From NCBI GenBank assembly GCA_051294375.1, contig CM119265.1:4223025-4287024 (forward strand): a stretch of DNA of 64,000 nucleotides, written 5' to 3'. Both the position numbers and the translations under genes were made by a program. This stretch comes from Paraspadella gotoi (lineage: Eukaryota > Animalia > Chaetognatha). Under the pieces are notes generated by a model, which was not told the DNA's origin, did not search any database, and saw only the letters and a program-made list of their open reading frames with translations. Shown piece by piece: positions 5,372 through 56,126 of this stretch; positions within the stretch are counted from its first letter, which is position 1; each line of letters starts with the position of its first letter.

Positions 5372-5415
<44 letters not shown>

Positions 5416-8196: not shown

Positions 8197-8293
<97 letters not shown>

Positions 8294-11200
8294 TGTTTGA
8301 GCTGCCTCGGTTTAATATCAAAATTGTTTAATTTGGCTGACTTTCTCGTAGACGACGATCGAGAATTCAACGATGTTTTAAATGTTTATTTCTTTCGAGA
8401 TAAACGGAGACGATGAATAAAAATGTTTCAATTGTTTCACAATAAACAACACGTTAAAATCCACTTAATAACAGTTTAATAAACGACATGAAAACGTTCG
8501 ACGTCGGGGAACGCAATAATCTTCACGGGAAAAAAGTTAAAATAAAAATTTATTGTCTTCAAGTATTTGCAAAGAAAACGTAACGATGGGATTAAAAAAG
8601 TTAAGGGTGTTGGGCGCGAACCCGCGACCTTTTCGTTAATAGCACCACGCTCTAACCAGCTGAGCTAACCGGCCACGGTTGTGTTAATCGCCTTTTTTTA
8701 TATATAAAATTCAAACTTAATCTAAACTTTATATTCTATATTAAGGCGTAGTAAAATTTCTAAATTTAACTTTAATTAAAATTCTAAAAGTGAGGAACGA
8801 ACAACATTATACTAATGAACATTTATGTAATAAAAAAATTTAGAATAACTTTTACAATTTATGCAGTAGGCCATATTTATACTAATACTAAACCAATAAA
8901 TGTTCAATTTTCAAAACAGTTTTTTTAAAGATTTTTTTGCAGATTTGGATTCGTCATAAAAAGTTGATAAAAAGAAATATAACTCTTTTTGAAAAATTGT
9001 TTTATTAAGTGGGTCAAAAATTATAAAAAGCTATATTTTAAGCTGAAAATTAACTTTTTATATATTAAATATATTTTTTTAAATTTTTAACCCACTTAAT
9101 GAAACAATTTTTTATAATGATTTATATTTTCTTTTATCAACTTTTGACGAGGAATTCAAATCTGCAATTAAAATTAAGAAAAGCCTATTTCGAAAATTTT
9201 CAATAATATAAGGATAGTACTATATATAAATTTAGCCTACTGCGAAAATTAAAAAACATAAAATTAATTTTTTTTACAAATTAATATTCACTGATGGTAT
9301 GTTGTTCATAATTGACTTTTAGAATTTTTGTATGTAACTTTCACTACGCCTTATTCTATATAGTGATTTACGAAAACTTAAGTAAGTTATTCTCTCACGT
9401 AGCCTCTTCTAAGGAAACATCTTTTTTAAATAATGTCTTAGTTGATCGTCTTCTCATGCCTAACACGCAGAAGGTCCCAGGGTCGAAACTGGGCAGTACC
9501 TGTTTTTTCAATTTTTGAAAATAAACTTTCGAACATCGATTGTGGTCGACAAGTATATACCATGATGGAAAAAAAGTGTCGCGGTTACTTTCCAGCTATT
9601 TTTTGACATTTTAATGTAAGAATCGAAAAATAAAATTTAAATATTAAGAAACTTCGGCCTTTTGTGATTCATATAAGCTGTGTCTCATTTATGTATGACA
9701 AAAACTACAAGAGTTCCATGTAAAAGAAAATACGTTGTCCAAAAAAGGCTTCCTTCATTTTTATCTTTTTTATATCTATACTTTTTATTTATACTCATTT
9801 CCAGTTCTTTTTTATTACTTTTTGAGTTTAACCAATACTATTTAAAATCCCTGCCTTTTCTCAGTCTCATGTCAAATGGTTATTGCATTATCTCTATTAG
9901 GATAGATTCATATGTCAAAAAAAGAACAATATTAAAAATACATTGATGCTGTAGATGTTACAGAATATTTTTTTTAAATTGTAAAGTATCAATAAAAGTT
10001 ATAAGGTTCCGGGTAACCTTTCTGTAAAAAAAGTTATAATTTTTATTTACCTTTGGATGTATAATCAGAATCAAGTATCAAACAAGTCGAAAAATAAAAA
10101 AAATTATTTTTATTAAAGTGAAAGACAATAAATTATCACATTATGAAGCAACAACTCAAGCCTGGTTTACTTTATAGAGGATCAATCTTGCATATACATT
10201 TAATATAAAAGGAAAAAAAATCATAATCAATTAGTGAAACAGGTTTTTTTTCCATTTAAACTCATTTCCACTCAAACGATTCCATCGAAACTTGGTTTCC
10301 TGTTCAATCACACACTTTCCTACTCACATACAAAATTTCATGTCAATCGCCCCATCCACTCATGAGCAAATAGTTCAAATAGTGAATTATATTTTTTTGT
10401 TTTTTCCATTTAAACTCATTTCCACTCGGACGATTCCATCGAAACTTTATATCCAGCTCAATCACACACTTCCCTACCCACACACAAAATTTCATTCAAA
10501 TCGATCCATCCAATCACGAGTAATTGGTGTTTTTTGCTAAGGTGGGATGGACGGACGGACATCATTTTTTTTGCATAATTTATCATAATTCGATGTTCTG
10601 ACATGATATAAGTTAGTGCCCGACAACATTGAGGGGGCGGAACGACAGACCGACAAAGTGAATTATAGAGTCAAGATCTGCTGATAAGCAGATCCGATTA
10701 AAAAGAATTCGAAATTCTTCAAAAATTACCATATGATTCTTTTCTTTGATCGATTTTCCGATTTTAATTTGCTTAGCGCACTTTTAAAAGGATTAAATTA
10801 AAGATTTTATATTTAACAAACATACACCTATTACTTATAATATAAATATAAAAAAATATTAAATTAGGTCAATTTCTTTTTAATATCAAAATTATAAATC
10901 AAAAGTCGTTCAACTACCATAAATAATTTCTTTAAGAACCAAATTTGTTGGTTAATGAATTTTTTCTCCATATTTTTAGTCGGATCTGCTGAAAAGCAGA
11001 TCCCGACTCTATAATTCACTTTGTTTGTCTGTCGGTCCGCCCCCTCAATCTTGTCGGGCATTCACTTATATCATGTCAGAACATCGAATTATGATAAATT
11101 ATGCAAGAAAAACGATGTCCGTCCGTCCGTCCGTCTGTCCGTCCATCCCACCTTAACAAAAAATACCAATTACTCGTGATTGCCTGGATGGATTGGAATG

Positions 11201-27400: not shown

Positions 27401-30400
27401 GGTCTCGGGAGCGGGGGATTGGCAGCGGTGAAAAATCGATCGATTCCACATCTCTGCTTCTGACATTTGACCACGCAGTTTTTACAATCCCACTGATTAA
27501 TGAAAATGTAGGATGTAGATGCAAAATGTCCCACGCATCCCCTCCAGAACTCGTCTCTTCTGACAGCAGGAATAGTGGCAGGTAATGGCAGTATTTCCTA
27601 ATGGACGCGGTTAGAAAAGCATATTCCGCCTTTTCTAAACACTGAGAAGGTCATGGTTATCATTATTATTTGTAATGGATTGTGTAATCTTTACAATTTA
27701 TACATGTGTACCAATTTTAAATATCATAATTCTTTACCCATCCCAAAAGAGCGGGAAAATGAATTAAGTTAACCTACTTATGATAAATTTTAAATTTAAA
27801 TTTAATCATTTTTTCATTAGGAACTCCAAGGCCTGATCAATTCTCATCTATGATTAGGGTGATAACCTCTTTATTGAGGAAGCGACGGCTACGCAAGAGA
27901 TTTGAAAGAGAAAAGAGGCGCCGACGTAAGCGACGGCGATGGAGGCAATTAATGCGCCGATGGATTGGACTGTTGAGGCAGTGAAGAAACAGGCCGCTAG
28001 AGGAGGGGAGATGGTTTTAAGAATCAAGAATAGTATTGGCATTATATTAAGTACTGTGTTACGAGGCTAGGGATCTCGCCCCTGCTCAGCAACTTAAGGA
28101 TAGGAAGGAAGAGAGAGGTACCTGAGCTAGTCTTCTCGCCCCTGCTCAGCAACCTAAGGATAGGAAGGAAGAGAGAGGTTCCTCAGCTTGTCTCCTCGCC
28201 CCTGCTCTGCAACCTAAGGTTAGGAAGGAAGAGAGAGGTACCTGAGCTAGTCTGCTCGCCCCTGCTCACCTACCTGAGGTAGGAAGGAAGCGATAGGTAC
28301 CTGAGCAAGTTTTCTCGTCACTCCTCTGCTATGTCAGCTATCTCAGCATAGATCATCTAATGAGAAGTTGGCGGGAAAAACAGAAGAACCAATGACAAGC
28401 TTGCACACCTCAGCAAGAGAGAGAGGAGGAAAGAGAGATCTCAGATACCACAGCCCTCAGCCAATAGGAGAGAGAGGGTATCACAGGCTATCCTCCCGTT
28501 GCCATAATATATTATTTATATTAATCTGCGCGATTGCCAGATATATAGCAGGTATCGCCTACCTGTCACACAAGTTGAGGTACATGTGACATTGCCTGCA
28601 TTAAAAGTTATTCTTCCCTTTTTCTAAAATGAATCCACGAAAATCTCGGATGTAAATTTAGGATTTTGTATTGAGAAAAAAAATAAATCGCGATAATAAA
28701 AAAAAGGAAAAAAATAATAAGAATTTTTCAAAAAACGCCAACGATCGTACAGAGAGAGAGAGACAGAAAGACAGAGATAGAGAGAGAGAAAGAGACGAAG
28801 AGAAAAAGAGAGACAGAAAGAAAGAGAAAGCTGGAAGGCAGCTGAACAGTCACTGCAGAACCTGAACTCGTTTTTTAAGGGTTCAGAAAAAGCAGCAACT
28901 GACAAAAATAGGGAAAAAAATCTTATATATATTTAAAGAAATAAAAGAAAGGCAAAAATATGTTACAATTGTTTACAATTGGAATTTTTTCCAATTTTTT
29001 CAATCGCAGCTTGTAAAAGATTTTATTTTTATTTGTATTAAAATTAAGATATAGTTTCTCATTAAAAAGTTATTTTGAGTTCCAATTTTTATTATAGATT
29101 TTTAAAAAAAATTTGAATTTCATCTTCAATATTATATACTGCAATATGTAAATTAGTTAAAGCATTTCTATATACTAATTTGGATATTATAATGAGTACT
29201 ATAATCTCATTTGCATATTGCAGTAAAAAGAAGTGGAAATTCAAACAAAAAATACTTAAATCCAAATGTAATGCGAAAATATCAAAGCTATTTCAAGATG
29301 AGAAGCCATATCTAAATTTTTAACTTACTATGATCGCACACTTTTGTAAAACTTTATCATAATTCATAATAATTTTTATTTAAAAAAAAAGGTAAGTCCC
29401 AACCAAACCTATAAAGGCATAGTAGTTTTTATATAAAAATAGCGTGACGCCGGACGACGACGACGACGACGACTTCACAAAGAAGCAATCAAAAACTAAA
29501 ACATTTATAAAAACGGCCTGAGACCGGCTTCGCCGGTCATGGCTCGATAAAAAAGTAGGGATTGCACTCAAAATCGGGAGCGGGAAGGGTCTCGGGAGCG
29601 GGGGATTGGCAGCGGTGCAAAATCGATCGATTCCACATCTCTGCTTCTGACATTTGACCACGCAGTTTTTACAATCCCACTGATTAATGAAAATGTAGGA
29701 TGTAGATGCAAAATGTCCCACGCATCCCCTCCAGAACTCGTCTTTCTGACAGCAGGAATAGTGGCAGGAATGGCAGTATTCCTAATGGACGCGGTTAGAA
29801 AAGCATATTCCGCCTTTTCTAAACACTGAGAAGGTCATGGTTATCATTATTATTTGTAATGGATTGTGTAATCTTTACAATTTTATACATGTGTACCAAT
29901 TTTAAATATCATAATTCTTTTACCCATCCCAAAAGAGCGGGAAAAATGAATTAAGTTAACCTACTTATGATAAATTTTAAATTTAAATTTAATCATTTTT
30001 TCATTAGGAACTCCAAGGCCTGATCAATTCTCATCTATGATTAGGGTGATAACCTCTTTATTGAGGAAGCGACGGCTACGCAAGAGATTTGAAAGAGAAA
30101 AGAGGCGCCGACGTAAGCGACGGCGATGGAGGCAATTAATGCGCCGATGGATTGGACTGTTGAGGCAGTGAAGAAACAGGCCGCTAGAGGAGGGGAGATG
30201 GTTTTAAGAATCAAAGAATAGTATTGGCATTATATTAAGTACTGTAATGATTATTATAGTCTGAAAATTGCAAGATTACTTGTTTCACTATCTTTAGTTT
30301 TTTTTAATTTAAAATATTTAAAATATTTAGAATATTTAGAATTGTCACCATATATAGTTTGAATACTATTCAATTTTTCATACGGGCACCCAGTCGGTCA

Positions 30401-35523: not shown

Positions 35524-38500
35524 TCAATTCGTGGAATTGGCTTCTTTGACTAGAGAACTGAAAGCTGACTTGACGTCGTTCAAAAGTTTCCTCGTTTCGT
35601 CAAACTCGACGATTTTCCCGTCATCCAATACCAGGATTTTGTCGTAGTCTAAAATGGTGTTGATTCTATGGGCGATGGTGATTATGGTGCAGCCAGCGAA
35701 CTCTTTACGAATCGTTTCCTAAATTGGTAAAGGGAATGATATTTAAAAATTATTGGTTGCATTATAATCATTATTATTTGTTTTATTATCATAATAACAT
35801 CTATAAAACCTGAGAGTTATCAAAAGGATAGTGGTTATTCTGGATAAAACTCGGGGGAAAATGAGAACAAATATTTAAAACTAGATTCCAAAACGAATGT
35901 TCAATGTTTTTTTTAAAATAATGTTGTTCACTCTTAGAATAAAATAGAATAGATAAAAATTTTCTTAAACTAATTACGTGATATTGCTAAGGGTAGCCCA
36001 ACTCAATGGGGTGGGTCAAGAATATAGAGCGAGTACATGCTCAAACGAATATTTATACATTTTTAAGAAGCGAATGAACGGATGCCTTTTGTTTGCAGAT
36101 CTTAGTCGAGGCATAATAGCTCATTTGCATAACGCGAGCATTAAAGTTTGAATGGGTAACAAACTCTTATTTCTTGTGAATATATCACTATTACAATAAA
36201 GTTACCCTTAATTGTCTTGAAAATAAATCTTAAAAAATCTTATTGATATTTTTAACAAATAATTCGAGTTTATTGTTTTCAAACGGAGGATTGGTTATCA
36301 AAATTTACACAAGTATTTAGGACACAACCTAAGCTTAGAAATATTGTTAAATTGGCAGTGCACTGATAATTAAGATATCTATCACTAAGAGTAGCCTAAC
36401 TCAGTATTAGGGGTAGCCGCACTCAAAAATTTAGAGTACATGCTCAAACGAAAATGTATACATTTATAAGTATACTTTCAAGGTACAAACAATTTCTTAT
36501 ACGGCTAGTAATACCCTAGTAATTATTTTTTTAATATTTATTTATAGATAAGAAAGTCCAAAATTCTGATACGGTCCGCAGAGCGGGCCCAGAATATTAA
36601 ACTGATTTTTGAGCATCGGAGGAGCGCTCAGTGCTTGCACGGCCTCCACCACGGGTCGTCCCGGTATTGCAGTACCTCCGGGATTGGCCCACCACCCATT
36701 GTGGAATTTAAAATATATATTTATAAATATTATTAATTAACATTGCATTATTTTATAATTTATTTCTTCCGGTGTTCGTAGTTAAACTCCCAAAGAACTT
36801 GCATAAATATACTTATTGGCTTTTCTTTCTTTGCGTTAATAATTAAATTTTTTTTAAATAAATTGTAGTTTACAACAAATACAAAAAACACACACCTCAC
36901 AGAAATATGAATCTCACGGAATCTCACCTGAATCAGGTCGTCAGTCTCCTGATCCACCGCCGCCGTCGCCTCGTCCAAGACGAGAATCTTCGCCCGCCGC
37001 AGCAACGCCCTCGCCAAACAGAGCAGCTGCTTCTGCCCGACGGACAAGTTGGTCCCGAATTCCGTGCAGCGGAACTCGATCCCTTCCGGTCGCGAGTCGA
37101 CGAAGGGCTGGAGATGCGCCAACTGGAGGACGCGGCGCACCTCGTCGTCCGATTTCTCCTCGAAAGGGTCCACGTTGAAACGAAGACTTCCCGAGAAGAC
37201 GACGGGATCTTGAGGAATGACCGAGATGCTCGACCGAAGGCGCCGCAAATCGACGCCGCCGATGACTCGCCCGTCGACGACGACGTCTCCCGGCGTCTCG
37301 GCCTCGACGACGCGAAAGAGCGCCAAGGCGAGAGTGGATTTTCCGGCGCCGGTTCGACCCACGACGCCGACACGTTGTCCGCCGGAAATAGAGAGTGTGA
37401 GTTTCTTGAGGACGAGATCGAGTCCAGATCGATAACGGACGCTGAGGTCATTGAAGACGATGTCGCCGCGATGAGGCCAAGTGGCGGGCGGATTAGAGTT
37501 GTCGGGCAGAGTGTCTTTGTCGGACAGAGTCTCGTCGTCGTCGTCGGCCACAGTCTTCGAAGGCTCGACGTCGAGGCGACTAAACTCGGCGATCCTCTCG
37601 ATGGCGACAAAGTGAGACTCGAACAAAGCGAGTTCAATCATGAGCCATTGAATGTGACCGTTCATGAGGAATGAGTAGGAGAGGCTGATTCCGAGGAGGC
37701 CTGACGGGAAGGGAAATGTGGGTGAGGTTTGGGTAAGTTGGGATTTTATTTTTACTTTTATTTTTTTATGTCTGTCTAAAATTATATTTTTAAAAAGACG
37801 TGTTAGTAAATTATTTTATTATATTAATAAGTGGTGCACTACATATTATTTTAGATTATATTTTATTTCATCTCTTACCCGGAGTTAAAGATGAATTCAA
37901 CAAAGTCAAGACGGCAGTAAAGTATTGCATAAAGGCGGCAATGCATTGGATACCCAACAGAATCCACGAATTGCAAGTCAAATCCGACAACCAGATGGAC
38001 GCGTTGGCGTCGATCAATTGGTGGCAATCGTTAGCGAGTTGCCTCTGAGCCTCGAAGGCGCGAATCGTGACCATCCCTTTGAGCGTCTCGTCGAATTTGG
38101 AGTAGACGGGGGATTTGGTGACTGCCTCTAACCGCTTCAATTGACGGGATGTTCGAAGGAAGAGTCTTTGCAGAGTGAAGAGAATGATGAGGGTGATGAA
38201 AAAGACGACGAGCATGTAGGGACTGATGATGCAGATGGTGACCATGATGGAAACTATGAGCAGAATACGATTGATAATATCTCGAGTCGTTTGGGGAAGT
38301 TGATCGTCCGCGATGTCCATGTCTTTGGAGAACCTGTTCAAAATTTATACAGAATGTGTAAATAGATACTTCAGAGGCGTTAGTATCTTAGTTAAGTACC
38401 TGTTTGTAATTCTCCCGACAGGAACCGTGTCAAAAAAGTGCATCGGCGCGCGAATGACTCTTTCAATCATAAGTTTATGAATCGTTTTACTGGATTGAAC

Positions 38501-41500
38501 GCTTCCAGCAAAGATAAAAAACGTACCGATCATAATCAAAAGGCCGCTAGATATACCCAAGATGCTGTAGATAAGTATGAAATGCTGAAAGTTGTTTTGG
38601 TTTGGATTTTTGGTCCAATCGGCGAGCCAGAACGAAGAGGAAACTTCTGCTGCCACGCCCACCCCGAAGATGAATGGGCCGAGGAAAAAAAAAGTCCGCG
38701 AGGCGTTTTTGACCCAAAAGAGAAATACGGACAAATCCGTGACGCCGTATTGAACGGCCTCTTTCTCCAAAAGTTTACCTGAACCGTTGATCGCGATCTT
38801 TTCATTTTGATCAGCTGGTTTAGGGTTTTTCATTTGCATTTCGTGATCATCACAATTTTCTCTCCATTTCGTCAGAGTGAACAAGAGACTTTCTGGATTC
38901 TTCATCAATTCATCGAATTTCCCAACTTCCATCAGACTTCCGTCTTTCAAGCACAAAATGAGATCAGCAGCTTGTAAGCAATTGATGTTATGAGTGACAA
39001 GGACTCTGGTTCTCTTTTTTAACAATCCATTCGGCCCGAGTAGATTTTGAAAGATGTGTTTTGCGACGTGGGCATCCACGGCGCTGAGTGGATCATCCAG
39101 TAAATAAAGTTGTTTATCCGCATAAGCCGCTCTCGCTAGAGCGACTCGAGCCTTTTGTCCGCCAGAAATGTTGACGCCATTTTCGCCGATCTCTGTGGAG
39201 TCACCGGCTGCCAGGATTTGTAGATCTGTCGAAAGCGCACAAGAAAATACGACAAGGTCGTATTGATCTTCAATGTAGCCTTTTCCAAACAACACGTTAT
39301 CTCGCAGCGATGCGTTAAAAATCCAGGGTTGCTGCGCCACGTATGCGATACTCCTATGGTCGACTTGGATTTCGCCTTCTTGCTTTTTCATTTCCCCCAG
39401 AATCGAAGCCAAAAGCGAAGACTTGCCAGATCCGACTGACCCAACGATACAAACCAGCGCACCGTGGGGAATTCGGAAATCAAGACTCTTGAGGGTTGGC
39501 GCCGTTAAATTCCATGAGCAATCGGCCTTTGCCAACTGAATTGCTATTTGTGGCTCAGATGGAAACGAGCGCTCTTGAGAAACTTCTTGTTCAATCAAGA
39601 AGTTTTCGATTCTCTCACCGGAAATCAATAATTGAAGAAACATTTTTATCAATCTCGGCATCAGGTAGAGAGGCTTTCTCATAATATTAATGAGGCTAAG
39701 AGTTACGAAAGCAACTTCGGCAGAAAGTAAATTATTTTCTGAGATAACGACGTACAGTGAGAATGAAAGTATGGCCATTATCATTGGCACAGTATTGAAC
39801 ATAAAATTGACTGATGCCGTTGCCATGTGAGCGTACAATAAGAACTTTGTTTCCGTTGCTCTTAATTGTGAAATTTTTTTCTGAAAAATAAATTGTACAT
39901 GATTACGGGCCTTACGGCTTTCTACTTGGACCATGAACAACAACAGCTTTTGGTTAAAATTGGCCTTCAATCTTAAAACAAGTTTGAGCAAACAATGTCG
40001 GATCTGCATTAATTAATTATTTATTTAATAATTAATTTATTCAAGTTTATTATTTAATTAATTTGGCAATTAATTAACTAATTTGATCCGAAATGTTTGT
40101 TTTGATTGATTGATTGATTAATTAATTAATTATTGATTAATCAATCGAATAATTAATTAATTGATTAATTATTTGATTAAATAATACATCTTGCATTTAT
40201 ATTTAAAATTAAAAAAAAGAAGCATAATCAATTAGTGAAATAGGTTCTTTGTTTTTTCCATTTAAACTCATTTCCACTCAAACGATTCCATCGAAACTTG
40301 ATTTCCAGTTTAATTACACACTTTTCTACCCAACTACAAAATTTCAAGTCAATCGCCCCATCCACTCATGGTAATTGGTGTTCAAATAGTGAAATATATT
40401 TTTTTGTTTTTTTTTTTATTAAACTCATTTATACTCGGACGATTCCATCGAAACTTCATATCCAGCTCAATCACACACTTCCTACCCACACATAAAATTT
40501 CATTCCAATCCATCAATCACATCACGAGTAATTGGTGTTTTTTGCTTAGGTGGGACGGACGGACATCTTTTTTTTTTTTGCATAATTTTCATAATTCGAT
40601 GTTCTGACATGATATAAGTGAATGCTCGACAAGATTGGGGGGGCGGACCGACGGACGCGACAAAAGTGAATTATAGAGTCGGGATCTGCTGAAAGATAAA
40701 AAAAAGTGCCAAATAATTCAACAAAAGGAGCATTAGGTTTATTTTTCAAAAACTAACCTGAAACGATTCTTCCCATGCATAAAGTTTTATAATTTTGATG
40801 CCATGAAAAATTTCATTTATATACTTCACTCGTTCATCTTTCAAGATAAGATTTTTTTTCTGATATTTGACTTGAAGTTTTCCAAAAAAGAAATTCAATG
40901 GGATAATAAGGATCAAACATGAAATGGCTCCCAATGTGGCAAGTCCGATTTGACGCCATATTAGATAACAACAAAATATAATCTAAAAATAAATTCGAAA
41001 ATCTTGACAAGAAAATGAAAATAGCCTTATGATGTAAGAATAGAAAACTTACCTCTAAAGGTCCATAAATTAATATGAATAAAAATTTTGTGAATAACAA
41101 ATATTTCATCGCATCGACACTCATCAAATTGAGTATTTTGCCGGAGGTAGTTTTGTTAAAAGAAGAATTTAAACGAAGGCTCTTGTGGTATATTGCCTAA
41201 AGAGTTTATTAAATATTAATTTTGCCTATTTTTCTCTTTAAAAATAGATAAAAATATTTCGTCAATACCTGTATTATAGTATTCTTTATTGCCAAACCCG
41301 TCGTTTCCGCAATAAGCATGAAATGCGAATAGCTAAATGATTTCATTAATTCTGTTATAAGAATCAAACTAGAAAAGAAAATTCCTTTCCAAATCCATTC
41401 CTCGTAAGACATTTGAAACTTAATTGCAGAATGGTCGCCTGGCAACGAGTCATTAGCCTTCACTTCCGAAAGATCATTGTGCGGTTTTTTGGCCACGTGA

Positions 41501-43211
41501 ACCAACATCAATCGAAATATTATTGGCTGCAATATAACTTGTATCGACGGCAAGGATCTAATGATAAACATAAGAAGTAGACGAGGCCAAAAACATTTTA
41601 ATAAGATCCAATGGAAACTTCTAGAAGGTTTTGGGCATTGTTCTTCAATTTGTTCGTGGCTTTGAATTAGTAAGTGAGAATGTTATGAATATTAAAATAA
41701 TTTTTTTTTATCCAAATTTGCAAATATATTTAGACACCCTTCTTAATACAATTTATTAGTTTGAATAATCAACAATTTGAAAATCGCTTTATACCAGCTT
41801 TATGCATGAAAATTTCAAAATTTCTCTAGTTTCAACCTTTAAAAAAATCTTTATGAGCTTAATTAAAACATTACACTTCAAGTTCAACGCATTCGATAAC
41901 ACTCTGACGTACCAATCAATCTTAATTGCTTGTTTCGCGAGATTGTGATGTTTATCGAATAAACTCTTGAGTACATTGATTTTACAGAACGATGGAAGTT
42001 TTCCAACGTCACCAACTTGAATGGCAGCCTTTCTCGCTTTCATGATCAACGGAACTATGAACCAAAAAAGCAGCTTGGAGAGAATGCTTGCTTCCTGCAT
42101 AAGATCCTCACAATTGCTTGGCTGATTTTCCCGATCTGAGAAGCACGACAGAATGAAACTTATTACGCCGAGACCAAATATTGCGTAAAATATAATAAGT
42201 TTCCCTTTTTCTGGTTCGATTAGTTGATCCTGTGATAATAATTATGAATACAATTCCGTACTTGTGATTTCGAATAGTTTTGTTTTTCCAAAATCGCTCA
42301 CCTTCTGATAAAGTTCTCGAATAAGAACGCCGCCCTGACCACCGCCGCCGCCACCGCCACCCGCCGATCTGATCAAATGCTGCAGCATCAGTGCAGCAAC
42401 GATCGTCAATGCCGCAAAGAAAACGAAATTCGCTTCGGAATTCTTGACGAAGCGACGTCGCTCCTCCAGGGTAAGTATGAGCGAGAAGAGGATCGCGAGG
42501 AGCAAGAGTAACGGAGTTAGGAATTCTACTGGAGCGAGGAGAGAGAATGGGGAAGTGGGGCAGAGTGGTGATGAGGAGTCGAAGGGAGAGACGGACTGAC
42601 GGATGGATTCCGCTTCGGTCCGGTCAATGACGATGACGAGTATGAGGTCTGTCAACAAAAAATTCATAAGTTTGTGAATTTGGTTTTATTAGGTGTATTG
42701 TTTGTTTGTCGTTAAATATTTTTTTAGTAAATTGAAATATTAACAAACATGGTTTCTTTGCCATAATCTAAAGAATAAAGTTTTAACGAATGCGTAAAGA
42801 AAAAAATACATATAATACTGTACGATACTAACAAATGGAATATGAAATAAACATCATGAAATAATTACATCTTTCATTCAACTTCAACAAACCTGCTGCT
42901 ATCAGCATCAACAAAACGACGCCGATCAACAATTTTCCCGCGAAAAGTTTCGACGAATTTCCCGGCGCCAAAAGTTGAGTCCAGCGCCGCTTTTTGACTC
43001 GCGGCGTCGCAAAGGACAAAGGGGCGAAGAACATCAGCGCCGCTAACGGAACAGCGCCCAAGAGAAGCTTCAGAAGGCACGGCGTCAAATCGGGCGCCGG
43101 CGTAAACCACGAAACGGCGTCGTCCCAAAGCGGCGTCCTCGCACAAAGCGGCGTGGCGAAGACGGCGTTGGAATTCGACGCCGGAAAGTTTGAGTCGGAG
43201 GAGCAATTCAT
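35524..43211 (-). CDS. ABCC/MRP1-like ABC exporter (long form with TMD0)
   Basis: Exons ~43211-42893, 42648-42302, 42229-41913, 41659-41269, 41196-41053, 40982-40758, 39880-38400, 38333-37879, 37700-36928, 35718-35524(TGA). N-terminal WD...[10 protein letters not shown]; NBD1 GSVGSGKSS / [14 protein letters not shown] / [11 protein letters not shown]; NBD2 GRTGAGKS / LSVGQKQL / LDEATAAVD / [13 protein letters not shown]. Confidence 0.93.
36565..36693 (+). ncRNA. U2 snRNA 3' fragment (5'-truncated pseudogene), antisense in the last ABCC intron
   Basis: TCTGATACG, stem IIb GGTCCGC-AGA-GCGGGCC, Sm site ATTTTTG, stem III, and stem-loop IV CCCGGTATTGCAGTACCTCCGGG. The first ~60 nt, including the branch-point recognition sequence, are absent. 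Confidence 0.85.
39978..40697 (-). mobile_element. Helentron family A copy in an ABCC intron
   Basis: Same termini and internal units as 6353-7095. Confidence 0.85.
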
Positions 43212-46937: not shown

Positions 46938-47965
46938 TGTTATTCTTACTAACTACTAGCCTAATTGCCGTTAACTAGCCTTGAAAATTTTATCAATCGT
47001 ACTTTGTAAGTATTTCCCTAACTTACCTTGAAAATCTCTTACACCGTATGTCAAGCTTACGACAACTTACCTTGCAAATGTTGCCGTTGTTCCAAAAGCG
47101 AAATGAATGATAGTATGGTGGNNNNNNNNNNTAACGTTGTCCATTTTTCCGCGAGTGAACGTTCTGCTTTCATCGTCTCCATGGCAACGAGCTCCCCCCG
47201 TTAACGTTGCCGATTCTCCCGCGAGTGGACGTTGACGCTCCGCGGCGTCCCGCTTCCGGTTCTGGCATCACCTCTCTGACGACGATCTAGACTGCTCTCT
47301 GCTTCGTTTCCACGACGACGCTCCGCTTCGTCTTGTTGATAACTTTTGACGAGACTCGTTCACGAAATCTTTGACCGGATTCTTTGACGGGAATCTGTGG
47401 CATGCTTGTGTCGACACACCTTAACAACCCGCGGCTCCGTCATTGACGACGGACTGGAACTTGACGAAGCACTGCAACTCTCGGCTGGCTTCTTGATGAT
47501 GATTTGCAGCAATCTTTGATGGCTCTTCGATGGATTATAACAGAAACTTGTTCGGCTCTATGACGTTGAGTCGAAACGATCTTTGGGCCGGCTCTTTGAC
47601 GAGGCGTTGCGACATCGTAAACTTTTTTGAGGATCGCGTTCGCTGGTTCCGGTTTCACTTTCTCGTCAGCGTCTAGACTTGTCTTTATCTTTATCTTTGT
47701 CTTTATCTTTCCACGCCACGGCGCCCGGCGTCGTCTCCTCGACGACGCGCTGGGACTGACGCCGCGAATGATGCTCTGCTCGATGACGCGTTGTTCTGTT
47801 CGATGACGTTCTGCTCTGCTTGACGCTTCGCTTCGCTTGACGCTTTACCGTACCGTCTTTCATTTTTTCTCCGTCTTTGTCTTGTCCGGAACGATGTCTT
47901 GGGTGCATGTACGTGTACGTGCGTGTGCGGGCATGTGCGTGCGTGCATTCGAGACCGGCTTAAAT
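46938..47965 (-). repeat. Putative 3' LTR of the BEL/Pao element
   Basis: Follows the PPT and ends ...GAATAACA. Contains two AAG|GTAAGT donors (47021-47029, 47065-47073). It starts TA rather than TG, includes a small N gap, and there is no 5' LTR to compare. Confidence 0.5.
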
Positions 47966-48475
47966 ATTTCTCTCCCCCTTTCTTGCACTCAAGAAAAATT
48001 TGTTTATTGAATTGTTCCTTTTCTGCTAAACTGCTCAAAGAAAATAAAACGAATTTTTTAATTACGAATTCTTTAAGAGCAAAAAATTTCTTATTTAAAT
48101 ACAGTGAATTAAATAATACGTAATCCGATCTAGCTAGTTATGCTTTCCTATTTTCTCTAATTGGTTACTCGTTACAGGTTACTTAGTTTAACTATCTTCT
48201 CGTCGTTTGTTTACCTCCGTATTCGTTCTTAAATCTTTTGTTTACTCTAAATTTTCCTAATTACCGTGCGTAAATTTTTTAAAGGTAAGTTATTTTTCTT
48301 ATTTTGTTAAGATTAATTTGTTAATGTAATTATCGACCTCGTCACAATTGACGTGGCCCTTCCCTAGCCTATTTTTATTTTAGGATTTATTTTTATAGGT
48401 TCCTGATCGGAATTACTTCGCGCACGACCGTAAAAACAAACAAATTAACAACAATGATGAAATTTTCAAGAATCT

Positions 48476-49747
48476 TTAACTTTTGCGTTTACGCGTTGAC
48501 TCTTTCGCCCACGACGGATAATTATCACGTCGTGGCGGTTCCTGCGGTGGTGGAGGTGGCGGTGGTGACGGAGGCGGCAACGGAGGCGGCGTCGGCGATG
48601 GCATCGGTTGCAGTCTCGGCAAGCGCTGTTTCTTGAAAGGTGGAGCTTTCGGTCTGGGCGGCGATTTCACCAAATTTTCTTTTCCTGGTGGTGGGCGAAA
48701 CTTCGAAAGTCCGTGATTTCCAGACGAAGAGCGTGTTCCATCTGTGGAAGGTGACCTTGGATGTGGGCACGATAATCGATCAACTTTGTCTTGGAGTTTA
48801 CTAAAAGCTTGCGCCCAATGACGTTCCGTGGTGGCACGTCGCTGCTCTGCCTCTTTTCGTTCCAGATCTAGCTTTAATTCTGCCGCTATCCTCCCTTTTC
48901 TCTCCTTCTTCAATTCTTCCTCCAATTTTTCTATCCTCCTCTTCATCTCCCCCTTCTCCACCCTCGCCTCTAATAGTTCTCTCTCCTTCCTCTTCAACAT
49001 CACGTTCTTGTCGGTGACGACGCGTTCAGCTAACGGCGTTGGAGTCGTCGAAATGGCGGTGGGATTTGCCATCACCTCCGTCGCCTTTTTGGAAACTGGC
49101 GTCGGCGGTGTCGTTTTCGGCTCGTCGATGATGACGATTGTGGACGACTTTTCTTTCGTCGCTTCATGCGCAGGTGTCGTTTTTGTCTTCACTACCGATG
49201 CCATCTCCTTCAGCACCTTTTCATCGGTCCCTTTACGTATGGCAGTGATCAACGCGTCAAAGTCCTCGTCAGTCCATCCGCGACTCCTTGCCACTTTTCG
49301 CCACGCCCTTCTGATCCTGTATATCATATTCTTCTTACCCGGGGGAATTTGGAATCCAAGCATGAAAAGTCTTTCATCTCCCGATCCGACGATTATTGGG
49401 ATTGTCGAATCCGTCATTGCACGACGATGTGGAGGAAGTTCTCCCCGTTTGAGAAAGCGTTCGACTGGATCTTCCGTTTCGGCACAGGATTCTTGGATTT
49501 GTTGCGGCGCCACTTCCGCTTCCGCTTCCGTTTCCGTCGCGTCAGTAAATGACGCTGGCTCCGCTGATGTACTGACTTCTATTGTGGTTGCAGAACTTGT
49601 CGTCAAATCGATGTCCAAGATCTCCGTCTCGAACAAGTCAGCTGCTGCGTCCACTGCTCCGTATACCGTATCTCTTTCTTGAAGCGACGGCGTCCACCAC
49701 ATGAGTCCTTCAAGGACTCCCGCATCGCTTTCGTCAAACAAGTTCAT
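48476..49747 (-). CDS. BEL accessory ORF6, ~423 aa, unknown; coiled coil with Pro-rich basic tail
   Basis: Uninterrupted ORF from ATG 49747 (MNLFDES). Heptad-like K/E-rich segment, PPPLPPPSPPPPPPP and basic ends (KKQR, RKRK). No signal peptide or TM segment is evident. Confidence 0.75.
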   Translation of the reverse strand: MNLFDESDAGVLEGLMWWTPSLQERDTVYGAVDAAADLFETEILDIDLTTSSATTIEVSTSAEPASFTDATETEAEAEVAPQQIQESCAETEDPVERFLKRGELPPHRRAMTDSTIPIIVGSGDERLFMLGFQIPPGKKNMIYRIRRAWRKVARSRGWTDEDFDALITAIRKGTDEKVLKEMASVVKTKTTPAHEATKEKSSTIVIIDEPKTTPPTPVSKKATEVMANPTAISTTPTPLAERVVTDKNVMLKRKERELLEARVEKGEMKRRIEKLEEELKKERKGRIAAELKLDLERKEAEQRRATTERHWAQAFSKLQDKVDRLSCPHPRSPSTDGTRSSSGNHGLSKFRPPPGKENLVKSPPRPKAPPFKKQRLPRLQPMPSPTPPPLPPPSPPPPPPPQEPPRRDNYPSWAKESTRKRKS

Positions 49748-49909
49748 TTTTATAATTGTTTTTCTCGACTCAAGCACAATATAATGTTTTCACCTAATTA
49801 ATAAAAATTCATGTGAATTAATACGAAATCATTAAATAACGTGTATTTTGAATTTAATTTTCAATTGTATCACTCCAAGAAATAATGTCTAATTTTTTGA
49901 TCATTGAGT

Positions 49910-50254
49910 TTATTCGTCTTGGAATAAGATTCTCAAACTTTCGAGAGTTTCCTTTTCTTCCTTTTGTTCTTTTCTTTCTCGAGCTTCCTCTTCCAGTTGT
50001 CTGAATATGTTTTCCCAATTATAATGTTGTAATCTTTGGATTCTTGCTTCGATTGCTGGATTACGTTCGTCTTCGTCGACATAAAAACTGAAACTCTCAC
50101 CGTTTCCGTCTGTTTCTGAATCTGTCCTTTGTATGACTATGGTCGGTCTTTCGATCTCATATGTTCTTTCGACTATGGTGTCCTCGGTGTCTTCAATTTC
50201 TTTTTCGTCTTCGTCGTTGGAATTCTTTTTCTCTGGATCTTGTTGGACGCCCAT
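49910..50254 (-). CDS. BEL accessory ORF5, ~114 aa acidic protein, unknown
   Basis: Runs from ATG 50254 (MGVQQD) to a TAA within AATAAA. Purine-rich coding bias flanked by AT-rich spacers. Confidence 0.65.
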   Translation of the reverse strand: MGVQQDPEKKNSNDEDEKEIEDTEDTIVERTYEIERPTIVIQRTDSETDGNGESFSFYVDEDERNPAIEARIQRLQHYNWENIFRQLEEEARERKEQKEEKETLESLRILFQDE

Positions 50255-50353
50255 GATTGTTGTCAATAAATGAGTTTTTTGTACTTTTTGCTAATTAAAA
50301 CAATTTAACCAATGAACAAAAATTCAATACGAAACCTTCCATCTCTTTTCGAA

Positions 50354-50740
50354 TTATTCCAATATGTTGTAATTGTATTCTATCGTTTCCGTAAACATGA
50401 TGTGATATCCTGGCGGCGTTGGTTCGTGATTCGCCTCTTCCTCTCCTTCGTTCCTCGGATCGTTGTTTTCCTCGTTGGCGGCTTCGTCCTCGATTTCTTC
50501 TTCTTCATCTTCGTTTTCGTTTTCGACTTCTTCCTCTCCTTCGTCACTTTCTCTGGAAGCCGTCAAAAATTCTTGAATTTGTTCTATGAACATCTCTCCC
50601 ACTTCTTGCATTCTATCGACGAAATGTTCTGCCGTTAAAATGTCTCCCGGATTTGCCCTTCTTTCTCCTGCATCCACGGACCCCGGTCTTGCTCTGATGA
50701 TTCTTTGTATTCTCGTGATTTCGATTGTCTCTTCCGACAT
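50354..50740 (-). CDS. BEL accessory ORF4, 128 aa, highly acidic, unknown
   Basis: AAAATG start preceded by the acceptor TTGTTTTCAG. Poly-E/D tract. Confidence 0.65.
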   Translation of the reverse strand: MSEETIEITRIQRIIRARPGSVDAGERRANPGDILTAEHFVDRMQEVGEMFIEQIQEFLTASRESDEGEEEVENENEDEEEEIEDEAANEENNDPRNEGEEEANHEPTPPGYHIMFTETIEYNYNILE

Positions 50741-50925
50741 TTTAGACTGTGACTGAAAACAAATTAAAGCATTAATACGTTAAAGTTTTGATCGTAAATT
50801 TTGGATGACTTTTGTTTTTTCTACAATGTTTCTCGTTAATCCGCATTTCTTTGAAATGCTCCTCCTCCTTTTTGCCGTTTAAATTTTGAATTTTCTTATT
50901 TTTCTTTTTTCAGTTTAAATCGAAT

Positions 50926-51264
50926 TTAATACATTTCAATGTCTTTATTCCGGTCTTTGGTCTCCTTCGAGAAGATTTTTTCGTCGTCTTCGATGACTTT
51001 GCTCCATCTTTTCAGGTAATCGACTCTCCACTTTGTTTCGTCATATTCTTTGTAAAGAGGCACACCTAATGCTATATAATCAAAGTATATCCCGTCTAAC
51101 CATTTCTCGTTCCATTCCAGTTTCATCAAGGTGTGTTCGAGATTGTCCGGGATGTCCAGCTTGGCTCGATCTCGCATCTGTTCTCGAAGCGTCTTGGCTT
51201 TTAATGGATTCGTCATCTCGGTCTCGGTGAGTTTAAGTTTATTTTCCATTTGCTCATGAGCCAT
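50926..51264 (-). CDS. BEL accessory ORF3, 112 aa, unknown
   Basis: ATG to TAA (within ATTAAA). Aromatic-rich core WNEKWLDGIYFDYIALG suggests a folded domain. Confidence 0.65.
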   Translation of the reverse strand: MAHEQMENKLKLTETEMTNPLKAKTLREQMRDRAKLDIPDNLEHTLMKLEWNEKWLDGIYFDYIALGVPLYKEYDETKWRVDYLKRWSKVIEDDEKIFSKETKDRNKDIEMY

Positions 51265-51351
51265 ATTACTTGGTATTGCTAAACTAAATTAACAAACACT
51301 TCATAAATTGATAATTATTGAAATGAAATTATTTGGAAATAGATTTTTCAT

Positions 51352-51732
51352 TTAATTTTTCTTTCCTTTCTGGTATTCTCCAATCTTTTTTATCGTCTTG
51401 GTGGTTTCGATGATTCTTACTTTGTTACGTTCTTCGATCATCTCGTAATACCTTTTTCTTTCGGGAAACGATTGCTTCGCCCTTTCAAACATGATTTTGA
51501 GTCGTTCCATGTTTTCGACCTTTTTGCTTAGGTCATTGATTGCTTTGTCTGGACATTCTTTGGCCTCTATTTCTGCTTTTGCTTTTTCTTCTTCAATCTT
51601 TGTCTCCTTCTCCAGCAACACCAGATCCAACACTTTGTACTCTCTGCCTTCTCCTGGTTCCTCTTTTTCAATTTGTTCCCATTTTTTTTCGATATCGTCC
51701 CACTTTTTAGCGATGACTTTAAATTTTTCCAT
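51352..51732 (-). CDS. BEL accessory ORF2, ~126 aa, K/E-rich helical protein, unknown
   Basis: Runs from ATG 51732 (MEKFK) to a TAA within ATTAAA. Confidence 0.65.
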   Translation of the reverse strand: MEKFKVIAKKWDDIEKKWEQIEKEEPGEGREYKVLDLVLLEKETKIEEEKAKAEIEAKECPDKAINDLSKKVENMERLKIMFERAKQSFPERKRYYEMIEERNKVRIIETTKTIKKIGEYQKGKKN

Positions 51733-51824
51733 TTCTCTAATGTCTAATGAATTAAACAAACAATTAACAATAAGTTCGAATTCAAAAAGAAAAAAAACAA
51801 CTAATGTTTGTAACTTCGGCTTTT

Positions 51825-52235
51825 TTATTCTTCCTTTTCGAATGCTGATTCTTTTTTCTTTTCGCTTTTTTCGTCATCGTCCGAACTTTGTCCATTCTCG
51901 ACGATAACGTCATATTTGCTGTCGTCGTCCACCATTTTCTTGAAATTGGTTTCTTCTTCTGGTACTTTAAAGCACTCCTCGTATATCTGGTTGAGATCTT
52001 CTTTTTTCTCAATTACACTCGGCTGTAAGTAGATCGTCTTGTATTCCTTTATTATTTTCTTCATATCCTCTCGTCTTCGATTTGTCGCTTTCAGAATCAA
52101 ACTCATTTCTTGTTCTGGCTCGTATTCCCAAGATTTTACGTTCTCAATCTCTTCTTTTAAATCTTCCATCCAAATGTTTAGGGATTTATCGAAATTTTCG
52201 TGGAATCGGTATTTCACTTTGTCGCGGAGGTCCAT
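51825..52235 (-). CDS. BEL accessory ORF1, 136 aa, K/E-rich, unknown
   Basis: ATG lies 160 nt after the pol stop. TAA within AATAAA is followed by a T-rich tract. Confidence 0.65.
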   Translation of the reverse strand: MDLRDKVKYRFHENFDKSLNIWMEDLKEEIENVKSWEYEPEQEMSLILKATNRRREDMKKIIKEYKTIYLQPSVIEKKEDLNQIYEECFKVPEEETNFKKMVDDDSKYDVIVENGQSSDDDEKSEKKKESAFEKEE

Positions 52236-52394
52236 CTTTCCTTTATTTAGCGTAATTCTAAATTTTATTAATTTACTGAGTTTTCGTCACACTTTGAATT
52301 CTTATTCGCTTAAAATTTTTTATTGTACAGTTTTTTCTATTTATAACGTTGTACTTATTTTTTAGTTTCTACGGCGCGACTTCAATGTGAGTTC

Positions 52395-55300
52395 CTATTC
52401 GAGTTCGAGCGCCACCAACGCGTTGTGATGACGTCGAAAAGTTTTTCCATCCGGGAGTCGTACGACGGCTTCTCTCTTCCGCGGCCCGTCTCCTTTTACT
52501 TCGATGACTCGTGCCGTTCTCCATTTGTCGCGCGGCGCGTTCGGTTCCACGAGCAAGACCATTTGCCCTTCTTGCAGATTCTCCGACGATGTCCTCCACT
52601 TCGTGCGTTCCTGCAATTGGACCAGGTACTCCGTTAACCATTTTTGCCAAAATTTATCTGCCGTCTCTCTCACTTGTCTCCATGTCGCTCTCATACAATC
52701 TCCTTCTGACGTTGCGTACGGTAAAATAGTTAGAGACGTTGACGTATATAAGTATGGATACAATAGGTTCATGGGCGACAATGCAATATCGCTAAGCGGC
52801 ATCAGATGACTCATGTGTGATCGGGCGTCTATTCAGAATACCTGCGACTTCATCAATATCGTTGCGAACGTGTCGATGTCCGGTTCGGAGGCAACGCGCG
52901 CCGTCAAGTGCTTCTTGGTTTCTTTGACGAGCCTTTCCCACACTCCGCCCCAATGCGGTGCGGTTAGGTGGACCGAAAATCCATGAAATCCCTTTTTCGG
53001 CTATTCTTTCGTTCACCTTTTCGTCCTCTTGAATTCTTTTCAATTGTTTTTCGATCTCGTTGTTGGCGCCCGCCAGATTTGTTCCGTTGTCCGACACGAG
53101 CGTACGTAATCCTGGGTATACATTCTTAAAACGTATTAGTGCATTTAACATTGATTGTGCGGACATGTCTTTCAGAATTTCAAAAGTAATGGCTCTTGTC
53201 GTCATGCATGTAAATAAAACTACATTTTTCTGTTCAGGCCTCTCCCTGCGTGTCTCACCTGGATTGGGCCGAAGCAATCTAGTCCGGTCGTCTCGAACGG
53301 GATCGCTTGATTTACCCTGAATTCTGGCAATTCTCCCATCTTTTGCGGCGTTGGCGTTTTGAAATTTCGCTGACAAGTGACGCATCGGCGAATGACTTTT
53401 CGACGGCGGATCTACCTCCTAGCAAGGTGAACTTTTGACGTAGCGTATGGAAAGTCGCACATGCACCTGCGTGATAAAGTTTCTCATGTTCGTATCTTAT
53501 ATGCAATCGACGTATTCGTCATCTTTTGGTAAAATGATTGGGTATTTTGCGTCATACGTCAAGCTCTTACTATTTCCTAATCTCCGCCCGTTCTCATCAT
53601 CCCTTCTTCATCAATAAACGGACTCAGTGAAATTATTTTCGAGTTTCTATTTCTCACTCTCTATGTGCATCGGGCGTCGTCACTCCCATTTTTATCAACT
53701 CGAAAATCTCTTTTTCGAATTTCTTTCTTTGGATCGATTTCACGATTTTTTTCTCAGCCCTTTCAAACTCTTGTCTCGTTAATCTTATTTTTTCTTTCTC
53801 CGTCTCTTCTCCTTTTTTCTTCTTTCTTTCGAACTCGATTATCTTTCACTATTGCCTTTGTGAAATACGCCACCCGTCTCACCTTTTTTACCCATTCGCT
53901 CACCTTTTCTGTCACTCTCATCACCCAATCTGCGTTCTCTTTTTCGTTCCCTTTCTCTGGATACTCTCTTGTTGCTGCGAAAATGAGTTCATATGCACTA
54001 AATTCGCTATCTTCGTTCACGGCGCAATGTTACCTGTATTTCTTTTTTCTTTTTTATGCTTCCAGATCGTTGGTGATGGGCCAATTTTCCCTCCTTTGGT
54101 TCAACCAGTTGGGCCCGTTGTGGAATGTCGCCCATGCTTCCGTGGTTGGCACAATTCCTCTGCTTGTAAGATCCGCTGGGTTCTCGTTGCTTGGTACGTA
54201 AAACCATTCGCTTGGCCTGGATAAAAGTCTAATCGTTTTTAAACGAAAATTCTCATACGTTTTGAATCTTTTTGTCCAGTCTCGGATCCATCTGATTACC
54301 GTCACCGAATCCGTCAACATGTAAATCTCATCGAATTCCTCACCTGATTCTCGGATCATCAAGTCTCTTAACTGCGCAGCCAGTCGTGCGGCGTTCAATT
54401 CCAAACGTGGCATCGAATCCAGGTGGTCAGTTGATTCGATAGAATGATTTTTTCTTGCATCTTGATAGGCAACACATGAGCTTTAGCGAATAGCAAAGTT
54501 GTATGTCCTCTCTCTCCATTCTTGTTCTCCTTTTTTAAATAAATTGCGGCGCCGTAACCATCGAGACACGCATCACAGAAAACGATTAACTTCGTCGTTA
54601 CGCACTCCAAACCAGGATCGACGTCCATCTCGAGATTCGCAATCTTTTTTTATGTGAACAAGCTTCTTTCTCCATTCTTCGAACGCCTCGTGGAGATCCT
54701 CCGGCAACTTCTCGTCCCAATCAAGTCCTGCACTAACGACTTTTTGTAAAATTATTCTTCCCTTCAGCACGACCGGCGCAACGAACCCGAGCGGATCAAA
54801 AACGGACGCGACCAACTTCAACATCTCTCGCCTTGTTTTCACTTCGTTTTCTGCCTTTTTCGTTACACGCGCAAAAAATACATCTCGTTTCGAATTATAT
54901 CCAACTCCCAGTACCTTCGAATCGTATTCGTCGATCGACGGATCCTCCGGCAGCGCGTTTTCGGCCATCTTCCCGAGATCATCTTCCAGTTCTTCGTCCG
55001 CGACTGTTTCGATCACTTTGTCCTCACCATCGTCGTCAGCGTTGTCCGACAAAATTCTCTCGTCCGACGCTTGCCATTTCTCCAATTCGAAACCTCCCTT
55101 TCTCATCGCCTCTGTCATATCCTTTCTCATTTTTCTCGCCTCCTTGATTCCGTCTAATGAATCCAAGAAATCGTCGACGTACACTTTTAAGAAAAACGCG
55201 GCTATCACTTCCGGCGAAAATTCTTTGTTTTGACTCAGTCTCTTACCATGATATTGCAGCACGAAAGTTGTTATACCTGGGCTTCCGGCGCCACCGAACA

Positions 55301-56026
55301 CGTGGACGAGCGGCTCGTGCACCTCCAACTCCTTCATCGACTTATCCTTGTACCAATGGTACCTGAAAGCGGCCACGTCTTTTGGATGGAGCTCAACTTG
55401 GTGAAAAAATCCTTTAATATCTCCGGAAATAGTATACCTTTTTCGGCGAAATTTTAACAACATGCCTACTAAAGGTGTTAGGTTATCGGGACCAGCGATC
55501 AAAAAATCATTTAAACACTTTCCTCTTACTTTCGACGACGCATCCTGGCAAATCCGAAATTTGCCGGGCTTGTCCGCTCTGGTGACGACAAGTAACGGCG
55601 CGAAAAACACAGGCAAATCGGCGGACGGATTCTCGACTTTAGCTTTTCTCGCATGACCTAATTTTATGGTTTCTTCCATCGTCTGGAACACCCCTTCAAG
55701 CACCACCGGATCTTTTCTCATCTTATTCGCTAGCTTCCTCGCTCGGTTCTCCGCGCTCTTTGTAACTTCTTCTTTCATCTTAGCGAACATCTCCGCGGTT
55801 TTCTCCCTTCCGTGTTTCCAAGGCGACGGCGCAACATAATGTCCCGTCGACTCATTGAAGTAAATTTCTCTCTCAAGCTGTTCAATCGCGAACCCATCTT
55901 GCACGGATGGATGTTGGACCTCGGACGGATACAGTTCGGACCCTTTCAACAAGAAATCATGACGAAACATATTCGCGATCAAATACTCCAGTTTCTCGTT
56001 CTCTGGCAACGTCGAACAACAACTCA
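52395..56026 (-). CDS. pol: BEL/Pao pol (RT, Pao RNase H, integrase, C-terminal DUF5641-like region) with multiple frameshifts
   Basis: RT: GKFRICQDAS, GDIKGFFHQV, FGGAGSP, YVDD. Pao RNase H: VFDPLG, FCDAC..YGAAIY, PRLELNAA, TDS, NPADLTSRG. Integrase: HEKLYHAG, LFTCMTTRAI, SDNGTN, ILNRRP, FWQKWLTEYL. Split over about 7 ORFs by short indels. Confidence 0.93.
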
Positions 56027-56126
56027 NNNNNNNNNNNNNNNNNNNNNNNNNNNNNNNNNNNNNNNNNNNNNNNNNNNNNNNNNNNNNNNNNNNNNNNNNN
56101 NNNNNNNNNNNNNNNNNNNNNNNNNN

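Follow-up and report, generated by a model that had tools for sequence, protein, structure and literature searches.

With a single promoter, a retroelement is thought to express added genes through splicing from a donor of its own, and so carries few extra genes. Complex retroviruses and the adenovirus major late unit have several splice acceptors, each before a start codon, and possess their own cis donor; adenovirus also uses several poly(A) sites, and retroviral mRNAs share the poly(A) site of the long terminal repeat (LTR), with accessory open reading frames (ORFs) that often overlap. Here, we analyze a stretch of 64,000 nucleotides (nt) from the chaetognath Paraspadella gotoi (GenBank assembly GCA_051294375.1, contig CM119265.1, positions 4,223,025 to 4,287,024, forward strand; hereafter the window), whose minus strand carries a Bel/Pao LTR retrotransposon with six accessory ORFs 3' of pol. 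We tentatively propose that this element is an operon of seven cistrons, separated by cleavage at poly(A) sites and by trans-splicing of the host spliced leader (SL), a reading that we prefer while judging it somewhat short of probable.

The closest described systems each resemble this locus in some respects. SL operons of chaetognaths, nematodes (SL2 type) and flatworms likewise consist of same-strand genes less than 250 bp apart, with a poly(A) signal, a short spacer and an unpaired acceptor (PMC12460157, PMC2481426, PMC12582326); in Paraspadella, trans-splicing affects 10,197 of 21,072 genes, and a spacing of <250 bp served as the criterion for calling operons (PMC12460157). Known SL operons consist of host genes, however, whereas the array described here lies within a retroelement that also needs an uncut genome, and leader addition to it is predicted. 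The C. elegans Ty3/gypsy element Cer1 is also an LTR element in a trans-splicing host, with an SL1-bearing accessory mRNA that has its own poly(A) site and a long RNA that skips these sites (PMC3315495, PMC10309623): the 2.4-kb mRNA takes SL1 and the 8-kb RNA does not (PMC3315495), and CERV has a role in export (PMC10309623). The planarian gypsy elements Burro and GYPSM1 similarly hold several accessory ORFs within an LTR element, but they are ~29-kb members of Ty3/gypsy, in contrast to the Bel/Pao pol found here (PMC6431247); since Burro belongs to a different superfamily, any shared layout would be convergent. Conserved extra ORFs are also described in bdelloid Vesta and Juno (ORF3; PMC5408684), in plant elements (aORFs; PMC7264820), in MDG1 (sORF1/2, with an internal poly(A) site after sORF1; 10.1101/2025.03.14.642691) and in Tor (env; PMC4402516, which also describes retroviral env splicing). 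Such elements add no more than one or two ORFs, many of them membrane-bound or of known origin, whereas the present element has six soluble orphans, each with processing-like signals; complex retroviruses differ in carrying env, which is lacking here (no hydrophobic segment occurs in the six ORFs). In the literature searched, with supplements and most subscription papers outside its scope, we found no LTR element, Bel/Pao or otherwise, in which several genes are arrayed with acceptors and poly(A) signals. Extra ORFs are already documented, as are spliced subgenomic RNAs, internal poly(A) sites and individual element RNAs that are trans-spliced; the array in this Bel/Pao element varies these known designs.

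The six accessory ORFs lie on the same strand as pol, and all end in TAA (Table 1). From pol-ORF1 to ORF5-ORF6, the spacers measure 159, 92, 87, 185, 99 and 162 nt, within the <250 bp spacing of SL operons, and have a GC content of 20-28%. The argument for an operon comes from a series of signals repeated in five of these spacers: a stop codon with or near a hexamer, a U-rich tract, TTAATT..AG, a short leader and an ATG; the pol-ORF1 spacer has a hexamer and a weaker AG. The initial annotation had described an AG close before each ATG, each in a T-rich context with a TAAT branch-like core and with no matching donor evident in the spacers, and had likened this to SL operons with their ~100-nt spacers. 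All six AGs are present, lying 22, 11, 19, 12, 36 and 46 nt before the ATGs of ORF1-6 with no intervening ATG, and no GT located at least 20 nt before an AG in the spacers matches more than five of eight donor positions. The T-rich context and TAAT core do not extend to ORF1, where the 25 nt before the AG have a T fraction of 0.32 and an A fraction of 0.56, with no TAAT directly before the AG, and the spacers, at 87-185 nt, are not all close to 100 nt. Also as annotated, AATAAA contains the stops of ORF1 and ORF5, and ATTAAA contains the stops of ORF2 and ORF3; the stops of ORF4 (AATAAT) and ORF6 (GTTAAA) do not sit in such hexamers. A hexamer thus overlaps the stop in four of six ORFs, against 0.67 expected given TAA (p 0.0017), and the hexamer-to-AG distances are 66, 85, 72, 177 and 120/64 nt. 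With a hexamer in five of six spacers and the shared acceptor motif in five of six, the sequence layout resembles that of SL operons, in which a poly(A) signal precedes a donor-less acceptor. ORF4, lacking a hexamer, may share the 3' end of ORF5. T-rich bins of 25 nt (at least 12 T) number 9 of 163, and all lie just behind ORF stops, including that of ORF6; since the tract behind ORF6 has no acceptor motif, U-tracts may have a role in forming 3' ends in addition to one in splicing.

Table 1. Features of the element and its accessory array (positions in the window)
Feature	Position	Strand	Evidence or remark
pol, Bel/Pao LTR retrotransposon	52395..56026	-	Pfam, homologues, tree, gaps
AATAAA after pol stop, candidate gag-pol poly(A) signal	52319..52324	-	66 nt before ORF1 AG; second at 52269
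Weak candidate acceptor of ORF1, AAATTTAG, AG 52258	52258..52265	-	shuffle p 0.15
ORF1, 136 amino acids (aa), acidic, stop in AATAAA	51825..52235	-	
Candidate acceptor of ORF2, TTAATTCATTAG, AG 51744, U-rich tract upstream	51744..51755	-	motif
ORF2, 126 aa, charged, stop in ATTAAA	51352..51732	-	
Candidate acceptor of ORF3, AG 51284, alternative AG 51279	51279..51292	-	motif
ORF3, 112 aa, stop in ATTAAA	50926..51264	-	more family copies than the other five ORFs (depth)
Candidate acceptor of ORF4, TTAATTTGTTTTCAG, AG 50753, top by hand-built score	50753..50767	-	p 0.005, motif
ORF4, 128 aa, very acidic, without canonical hexamer at end	50354..50740	-	
Candidate acceptor of ORF5, TTAATTAG, AG 50291	50291..50298	-	motif
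ORF5, 114 aa, acidic, stop in AATAAA	49910..50254	-	
Candidate acceptor of ORF6, TTAATTAG, AG 49794, in-frame stop in leader	49794..49801	-	motif
ORF6, 423 aa: acidic N-terminus, small helical region, K/E/R-rich stretch, proline-rich basic tail	48476..49747	-	
U-rich tract and two AATAAA (48391, 48379) after ORF6, without TTAATT..AG	48374..48475	-	
Multi-copy 3' end of element (LTR or conserved 3' untranslated region, UTR)	47132..47980	-	depth; cut by gap 47122-47131
Two perfect donor-like sites AG/GTAAGT, GT at 47070 and 47026	47021..47072	-	beyond 3' gap; LTR membership candidate only

The initial annotation had asked for motif enrichment over shuffled spacers, and this is what we observe with a hand-built score for tract, branch and YAG: the joint sum was reached in 0 of 3000 dinucleotide shuffles, with p values of 0.005-0.15 for single spacers. 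The pattern TTAATT(N0-7)AG has five sense matches in 8.9 kb, all of them 11-46 nt before the ATGs of ORF2-6, and no antisense match; it occurs in 10 of 674 AT-rich 60-mers of host DNA, and a near-identical pattern is not enriched across the window (27 versus 24.7). Both the hand-built score and the motif are post hoc, having been designed after the sites were known. An independent position weight matrix (PWM) was built from 16 host cis acceptors in introns of two window genes, one phosphodiesterase (PDE)-like and one ABCC, with boundaries set by eye and, for ABCC, with TBLASTN. This matrix ranks the single sites 7-129 among the 337 AGs of the cassette, taking an AG other than 51284 as the best one in the ORF3 spacer. 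The element sites score -0.3 to -5.0, compared with -0.6 to 11.8 for the host training sites, and one of the 16 host cis acceptors ends in the TTAATT..AG motif; the candidate acceptors of the element differ in sequence from host cis acceptors. AG-free zones of 43-77 nt precede the motif AG in four of five cases, and the sequence turns from T-rich to A-rich at the AG.

A further reading takes the six ORFs as exons of one spliced protein, an outcome that the initial annotation named as one that would overturn its proposal, and the leaders are indeed open in frame from AG to ATG in five of six ORFs. Each ORF has its own ATG and TAA, however, and the acceptor-to-ATG phases are mixed (1, 2, 1, 0, 0, 1), the ORF6 leader contains an in-frame stop, and the three ORFs with donor-like GTs (ORF2, ORF3 and ORF5) would be joined out of frame, all of which argues against exons of a single protein. 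No donor with at least six of eight matches occurs in ORF1 or ORF4, and the alignment with a diverged copy breaks exactly at the ORF6 ATG. We consider the one-protein reading largely refuted, and hardly credible as an account of the array. The annotated idea of six monocistronic mRNAs fares well in so far as the anatomy fits separately processed one-gene messages, and less well at ORF1, with its weak acceptor, and at ORF4, with no hexamer.

By their sequences, the accessory ORFs encode six predicted soluble orphan proteins. None of the six contains a membrane segment (highest 19-residue hydropathy 0.98 or less) or matches a fusion-protein or other Pfam family at cut-off, and BLASTP among the six indicates that they are not paralogues. 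Exact look-ups were blank for all six, and a deep homology search, which covered ORF3 and ORF6, found no homologue of ORF3 among 1.84 billion representatives and none of ORF6 residues 80-330 among near lengths; the best ESM Atlas scores for accessory ORFs are 0.82 and 0.81. Single-sequence structure models are poor (predicted local distance difference test, pLDDT, 55). Two identities were considered: env, which is rejected given the lack of a transmembrane segment and of a Pfam match at cut-off, and a SANT/Myb-like motif in ORF6, a guess left unsupported by structure searches, in which the ORF6 piece gave no Foldseek match and a best Z of 4.3.

The element to which these ORFs belong is a Bel/Pao LTR retrotransposon (Belpaoviridae), not Ty3/gypsy. 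A profile scan of window ORFs matched PF00078, PF05380 and PF18701 in the minus-strand pol, which has the Bel/Pao domain order of reverse transcriptase, Pao-type RNase H/peptidase A17 region (PF05380), integrase and C-terminal DUF5641. The closest pol homologues, 39-42% identical, come from metagenome assemblies, and nearly all homologues carry PF05380. A tree of 20 rows (18 pol proteins, the related metagenome locus L002 and the window piece, with shorter homologue matches left out) places the window pol in a long-branched clade of six rows together with metagenome pols and L002, with support 100/100. An assembly gap at 56027-56126 takes away the 5' part of pol, gag and the 5' LTR. Of 11 sequencing runs, none is recorded as RNA; we examined runs as contigs, first for X1, X3, X7 and X8 and then for X1, X7 and X9; contigs drop rare forms, and X7 and X8 have near-identical depth tables and are therefore likely one data set. 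The pol frame is fragmented in the assembly, and at most of 12 listed indels the contigs of the first four runs disagree with the window, indicating assembly error or copy-specific decay. The cassette, by comparison, is matched almost exactly by contigs, for example over 2163 nt with zero differences and over 1251 nt extending into the last pol codons, and is thus real and joined to pol. Contigs of X7 and X8 also contain a joint that skips 6477 nt (48426-54904), from pol to just past ORF6, possibly from an internally deleted copy.

Diverged copies of the element were compared in those parts that are at least 80% alike, where changes are not independent of one another. Among the 40 of 68 differences listed, 36 fall within ORF3-5; 24 of these 36 are at third codon positions and 23 are synonymous (p about 1e-6), and in ORF3 the synonymous fraction is 14 of 19 listed changes. 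ORF3-5 are under purifying selection. All six of the indels listed fall in the ORF3-4 spacer, and a diverged contig over ORF2 aligns for 356 nt with 50 substitutions and no gap before running into 102 unalignable letters, where the window has 92 spanning the spacer. The order ORF3-4-5-6 is kept in the diverged copy (a 2336-nt X7 contig and shorter X1 contigs). Beyond the break at the ORF6 ATG, alignments break twice inside ORF4 and ORF5, which suggests that the accessory proteins evolve fast. X3 depth is ~440-510 over most of the cassette and ~1200-3600 over pol, so this version of the cassette is likely confined to a subset of family members. Related loci were absent from viral contigs and from a first metagenome scan, and a second metagenome scan yielded three; none of the three has a protein match to ORF1-6 or a TTAATT..AG motif after pol. 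The gag of one of them, L002, carries Cys/His motifs at its C-terminus. At L002 9332-10254 (+), downstream of the related pol and behind a long T tract and CCAG, an open frame of more than 300 codons has RS repeats and a charged stretch, and is of element or host origin.

We propose a model in which the hexamer behind each gene would direct cleavage and polyadenylation of the LTR transcript, and the next TTAATT..AG would receive the host spliced leader by trans-splicing, capping each downstream message. Cleavage after one gene would leave an uncapped RNA, to be rescued by the spliced leader at the next AG. Two considerations lead to this model: the genes have the appearance of terminal exons, whose leader must come from elsewhere, and a poly(A) site between genes leaves the downstream RNA without a cap or a donor, a condition that trans-splicing resolves. 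A fraction of transcripts would escape all sites to act as genomic RNA, as the Cer1 8-kb RNA does, and, more speculatively, one accessory protein may favour this escape, like Rev or CERV. Use of the AGs and hexamers, the spliced leader as donor and trans-splicing by the host are what we infer from the arrangement of signals. An Rfam scan of the window found no SL family, with U2-like and tRNA matches only.

Several observations weigh against this model. The stronger acceptor tests are the post hoc ones, and the host-trained PWM gives only a modest joint signal (p 0.018 versus shuffles, 0.023 versus 795 AT-rich host windows). The ORF1 acceptor is weak and lacks the TTAATT motif, the end of ORF4 lacks a hexamer, and hexamers also occur inside ORF1, ORF3 (three times) and ORF6. 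Perfect donor-like sites lie on the far 3' side of the element and, in L002, upstream of gag. In a Spadella operon, the poly(A) site and the acceptor are 3 nt apart, closer than here (PMC2481426), and a cis donor out-competes the spliced leader (PMC4558846). Finally, the spacers of diverged copies are mostly unalignable at 80%, which makes conservation of the motifs across copies unreadable apart from three partial exceptions. A contig found in X1 and X9 aligns across the ORF5 U-tract, AG and leader and has unlike sequence upstream of 50327, a break that hints at module swapping; an X9 contig alignment reaches 50763, across the ORF4 AG; and a variant seen at the same depths in X7 and X9, a single case, lacks ATTAAA at the ORF3 stop, a further point against the model, yet carries ATTAAA ~47 nt downstream, a point for it. 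The contigs also bear on the acceptors directly. Among the joints and loose ends listed, none lies at any of the six AGs, which is evidence neither way since the listing is not exhaustive and contigs drop rare forms; an X1 contig (48671-50833) is colinear over three acceptors, which means read-through RNA only if X1 is RNA; and loose ends near acceptors at 50763 and 50327 are longer than a leader, lie off the AG and by eye are unlike published leaders.

The closest rival retains the acceptors and poly(A) signals and changes the source of the leader. One short element-encoded leader, with its donor in the 5' LTR or before gag, could be cis-spliced to each acceptor. The ORFs would then serve as alternative last exons, each ending at a poly(A) site of its own, much as complex retroviruses and the adenovirus late unit operate. 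If the LTR includes the donor-like sites at 47070 and 47026, these would precede all of the acceptors, but they stand beyond an assembly gap, and similar GGTAAGT sites occur in host DNA, with eight other AGGTAAGT sites in the window. L002 has a donor-like site, AGGTAAGT, at 300, ahead of gag; the L003 copy lies just after pol, not before gag. The mixed phases suit a non-coding leader, and spliced env and ORF3 mRNAs represent the usual route (PMC4402516, PMC5408684); against this, five poly(A) signals would have to be skipped to reach ORF6, and the acceptors are unlike host cis acceptors. We regard this cis-spliced leader as unlikely on balance but a serious contender, and the trans-splicing and cis-splicing routes may coexist.

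Two further accounts dispense with splicing onto the AGs. The six could be separate genes whose spacers are internal promoters or start-site elements, with TTAATT..AG acting in transcription start or 3'-end formation. Internal env promoters are described in Oikopleura Tor3b/4b (PMC4402516), the PWM signal of the acceptors is modest, and TTAATT with a U-rich tract also occurs 3' of ORF6 with no acceptor AG directly after it. A promoter, a 3' UTR and a signal for 3'-end formation, though, would all need to fit into spacers of 87-99 nt, and the AG endings of all five motifs, the AG-free zones and the switch in composition at the AG speak for acceptors, leaving internal promoters improbable in our view. 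Less probable still, the motifs could be by-products, either of the AT-richness of the spacers or of host mRNAs once captured with their leader and poly(A) ends; translation of the proteins would then depend on leaky scanning or reinitiation along the full-length RNA. The low GC content of the spacers, the lack of window-wide enrichment of the pattern and the ease with which hexamers come about in A-rich DNA fit such an origin. Position and strand specificity, with five of five sense matches before starts and none antisense, and the excess of hexamers on stops do not; moreover, the two published chaetognath leader 3' ends show no excess match and none in the spacers, and no host homologue of the ORFs was found in searches that went deep for ORF3 and ORF6.

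If the operon model holds, its evolutionary extension would be that a Bel/Pao element became a seven-cistron operon whose one RNA is cut, via the host spliced leader and poly(A) machinery, into gag-pol and up to six accessory mRNAs, with genes gained or swapped as self-contained cassettes of U-tract, acceptor, ORF and poly(A) signal; flatworm gypsy elements would have reached the same design independently. We hold this fuller scenario as conceivable but rather doubtful. Were it true, spliced-leader hosts would lift the limit on gene number, letting elements carry virus-like gene sets, and phyla with trans-splicing should be the ones in which large accessory arrays concentrate. It would also have to be explained how the genomic RNA avoids cleavage at six sites, and the array offers six orphan proteins for study, three of them shown to be under selection.

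At the 3' end of the element, purine tracts resembling a polypurine tract (PPT) lie at 47972-47980 and 47192-47201 within the multi-copy segment, with a motif common to L002 and L003, where a PPT-like tract lies 250-440 nt 3' of the pol stop. A tandem repeat of ~50-70 nt at 47135-47230 (-), collapsed at a gap of 10 N, includes a PPT-like tract with a core common to L002 and L003. The fold of the donor-bearing segment is not better than that of shuffles (z -0.31). Eleven nt after ORF6 (48280-48290, -) are complementary to the donor-like site at 47021-47031, and 10 nt to the one at 47063-47072; this stretch resembles the 5' end of U1 and could mask a donor, although such motifs are frequent in the genome.

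Elsewhere in the window, a host gene judged PDE10/11-like by eye, its exons GAF and phosphodiesterase-like, spans 2400-12480 (+), and its introns gave nine of the host acceptors. A host ABCC/MRP transporter gene lies at 35530-43211 (-), with at most 52% identity among the 120 matches listed and two introns filled by a dispersed host repeat. In its last intron, on the opposite strand, 36492-36697 (+) gives a U2 small nuclear RNA-like match of 67 bits that looks degenerate. A tandem duplication of ~2.2 kb at 26400-28100 and 28600-30230 contains near-identical translated frames at 27202/29383 and 27787/29974.

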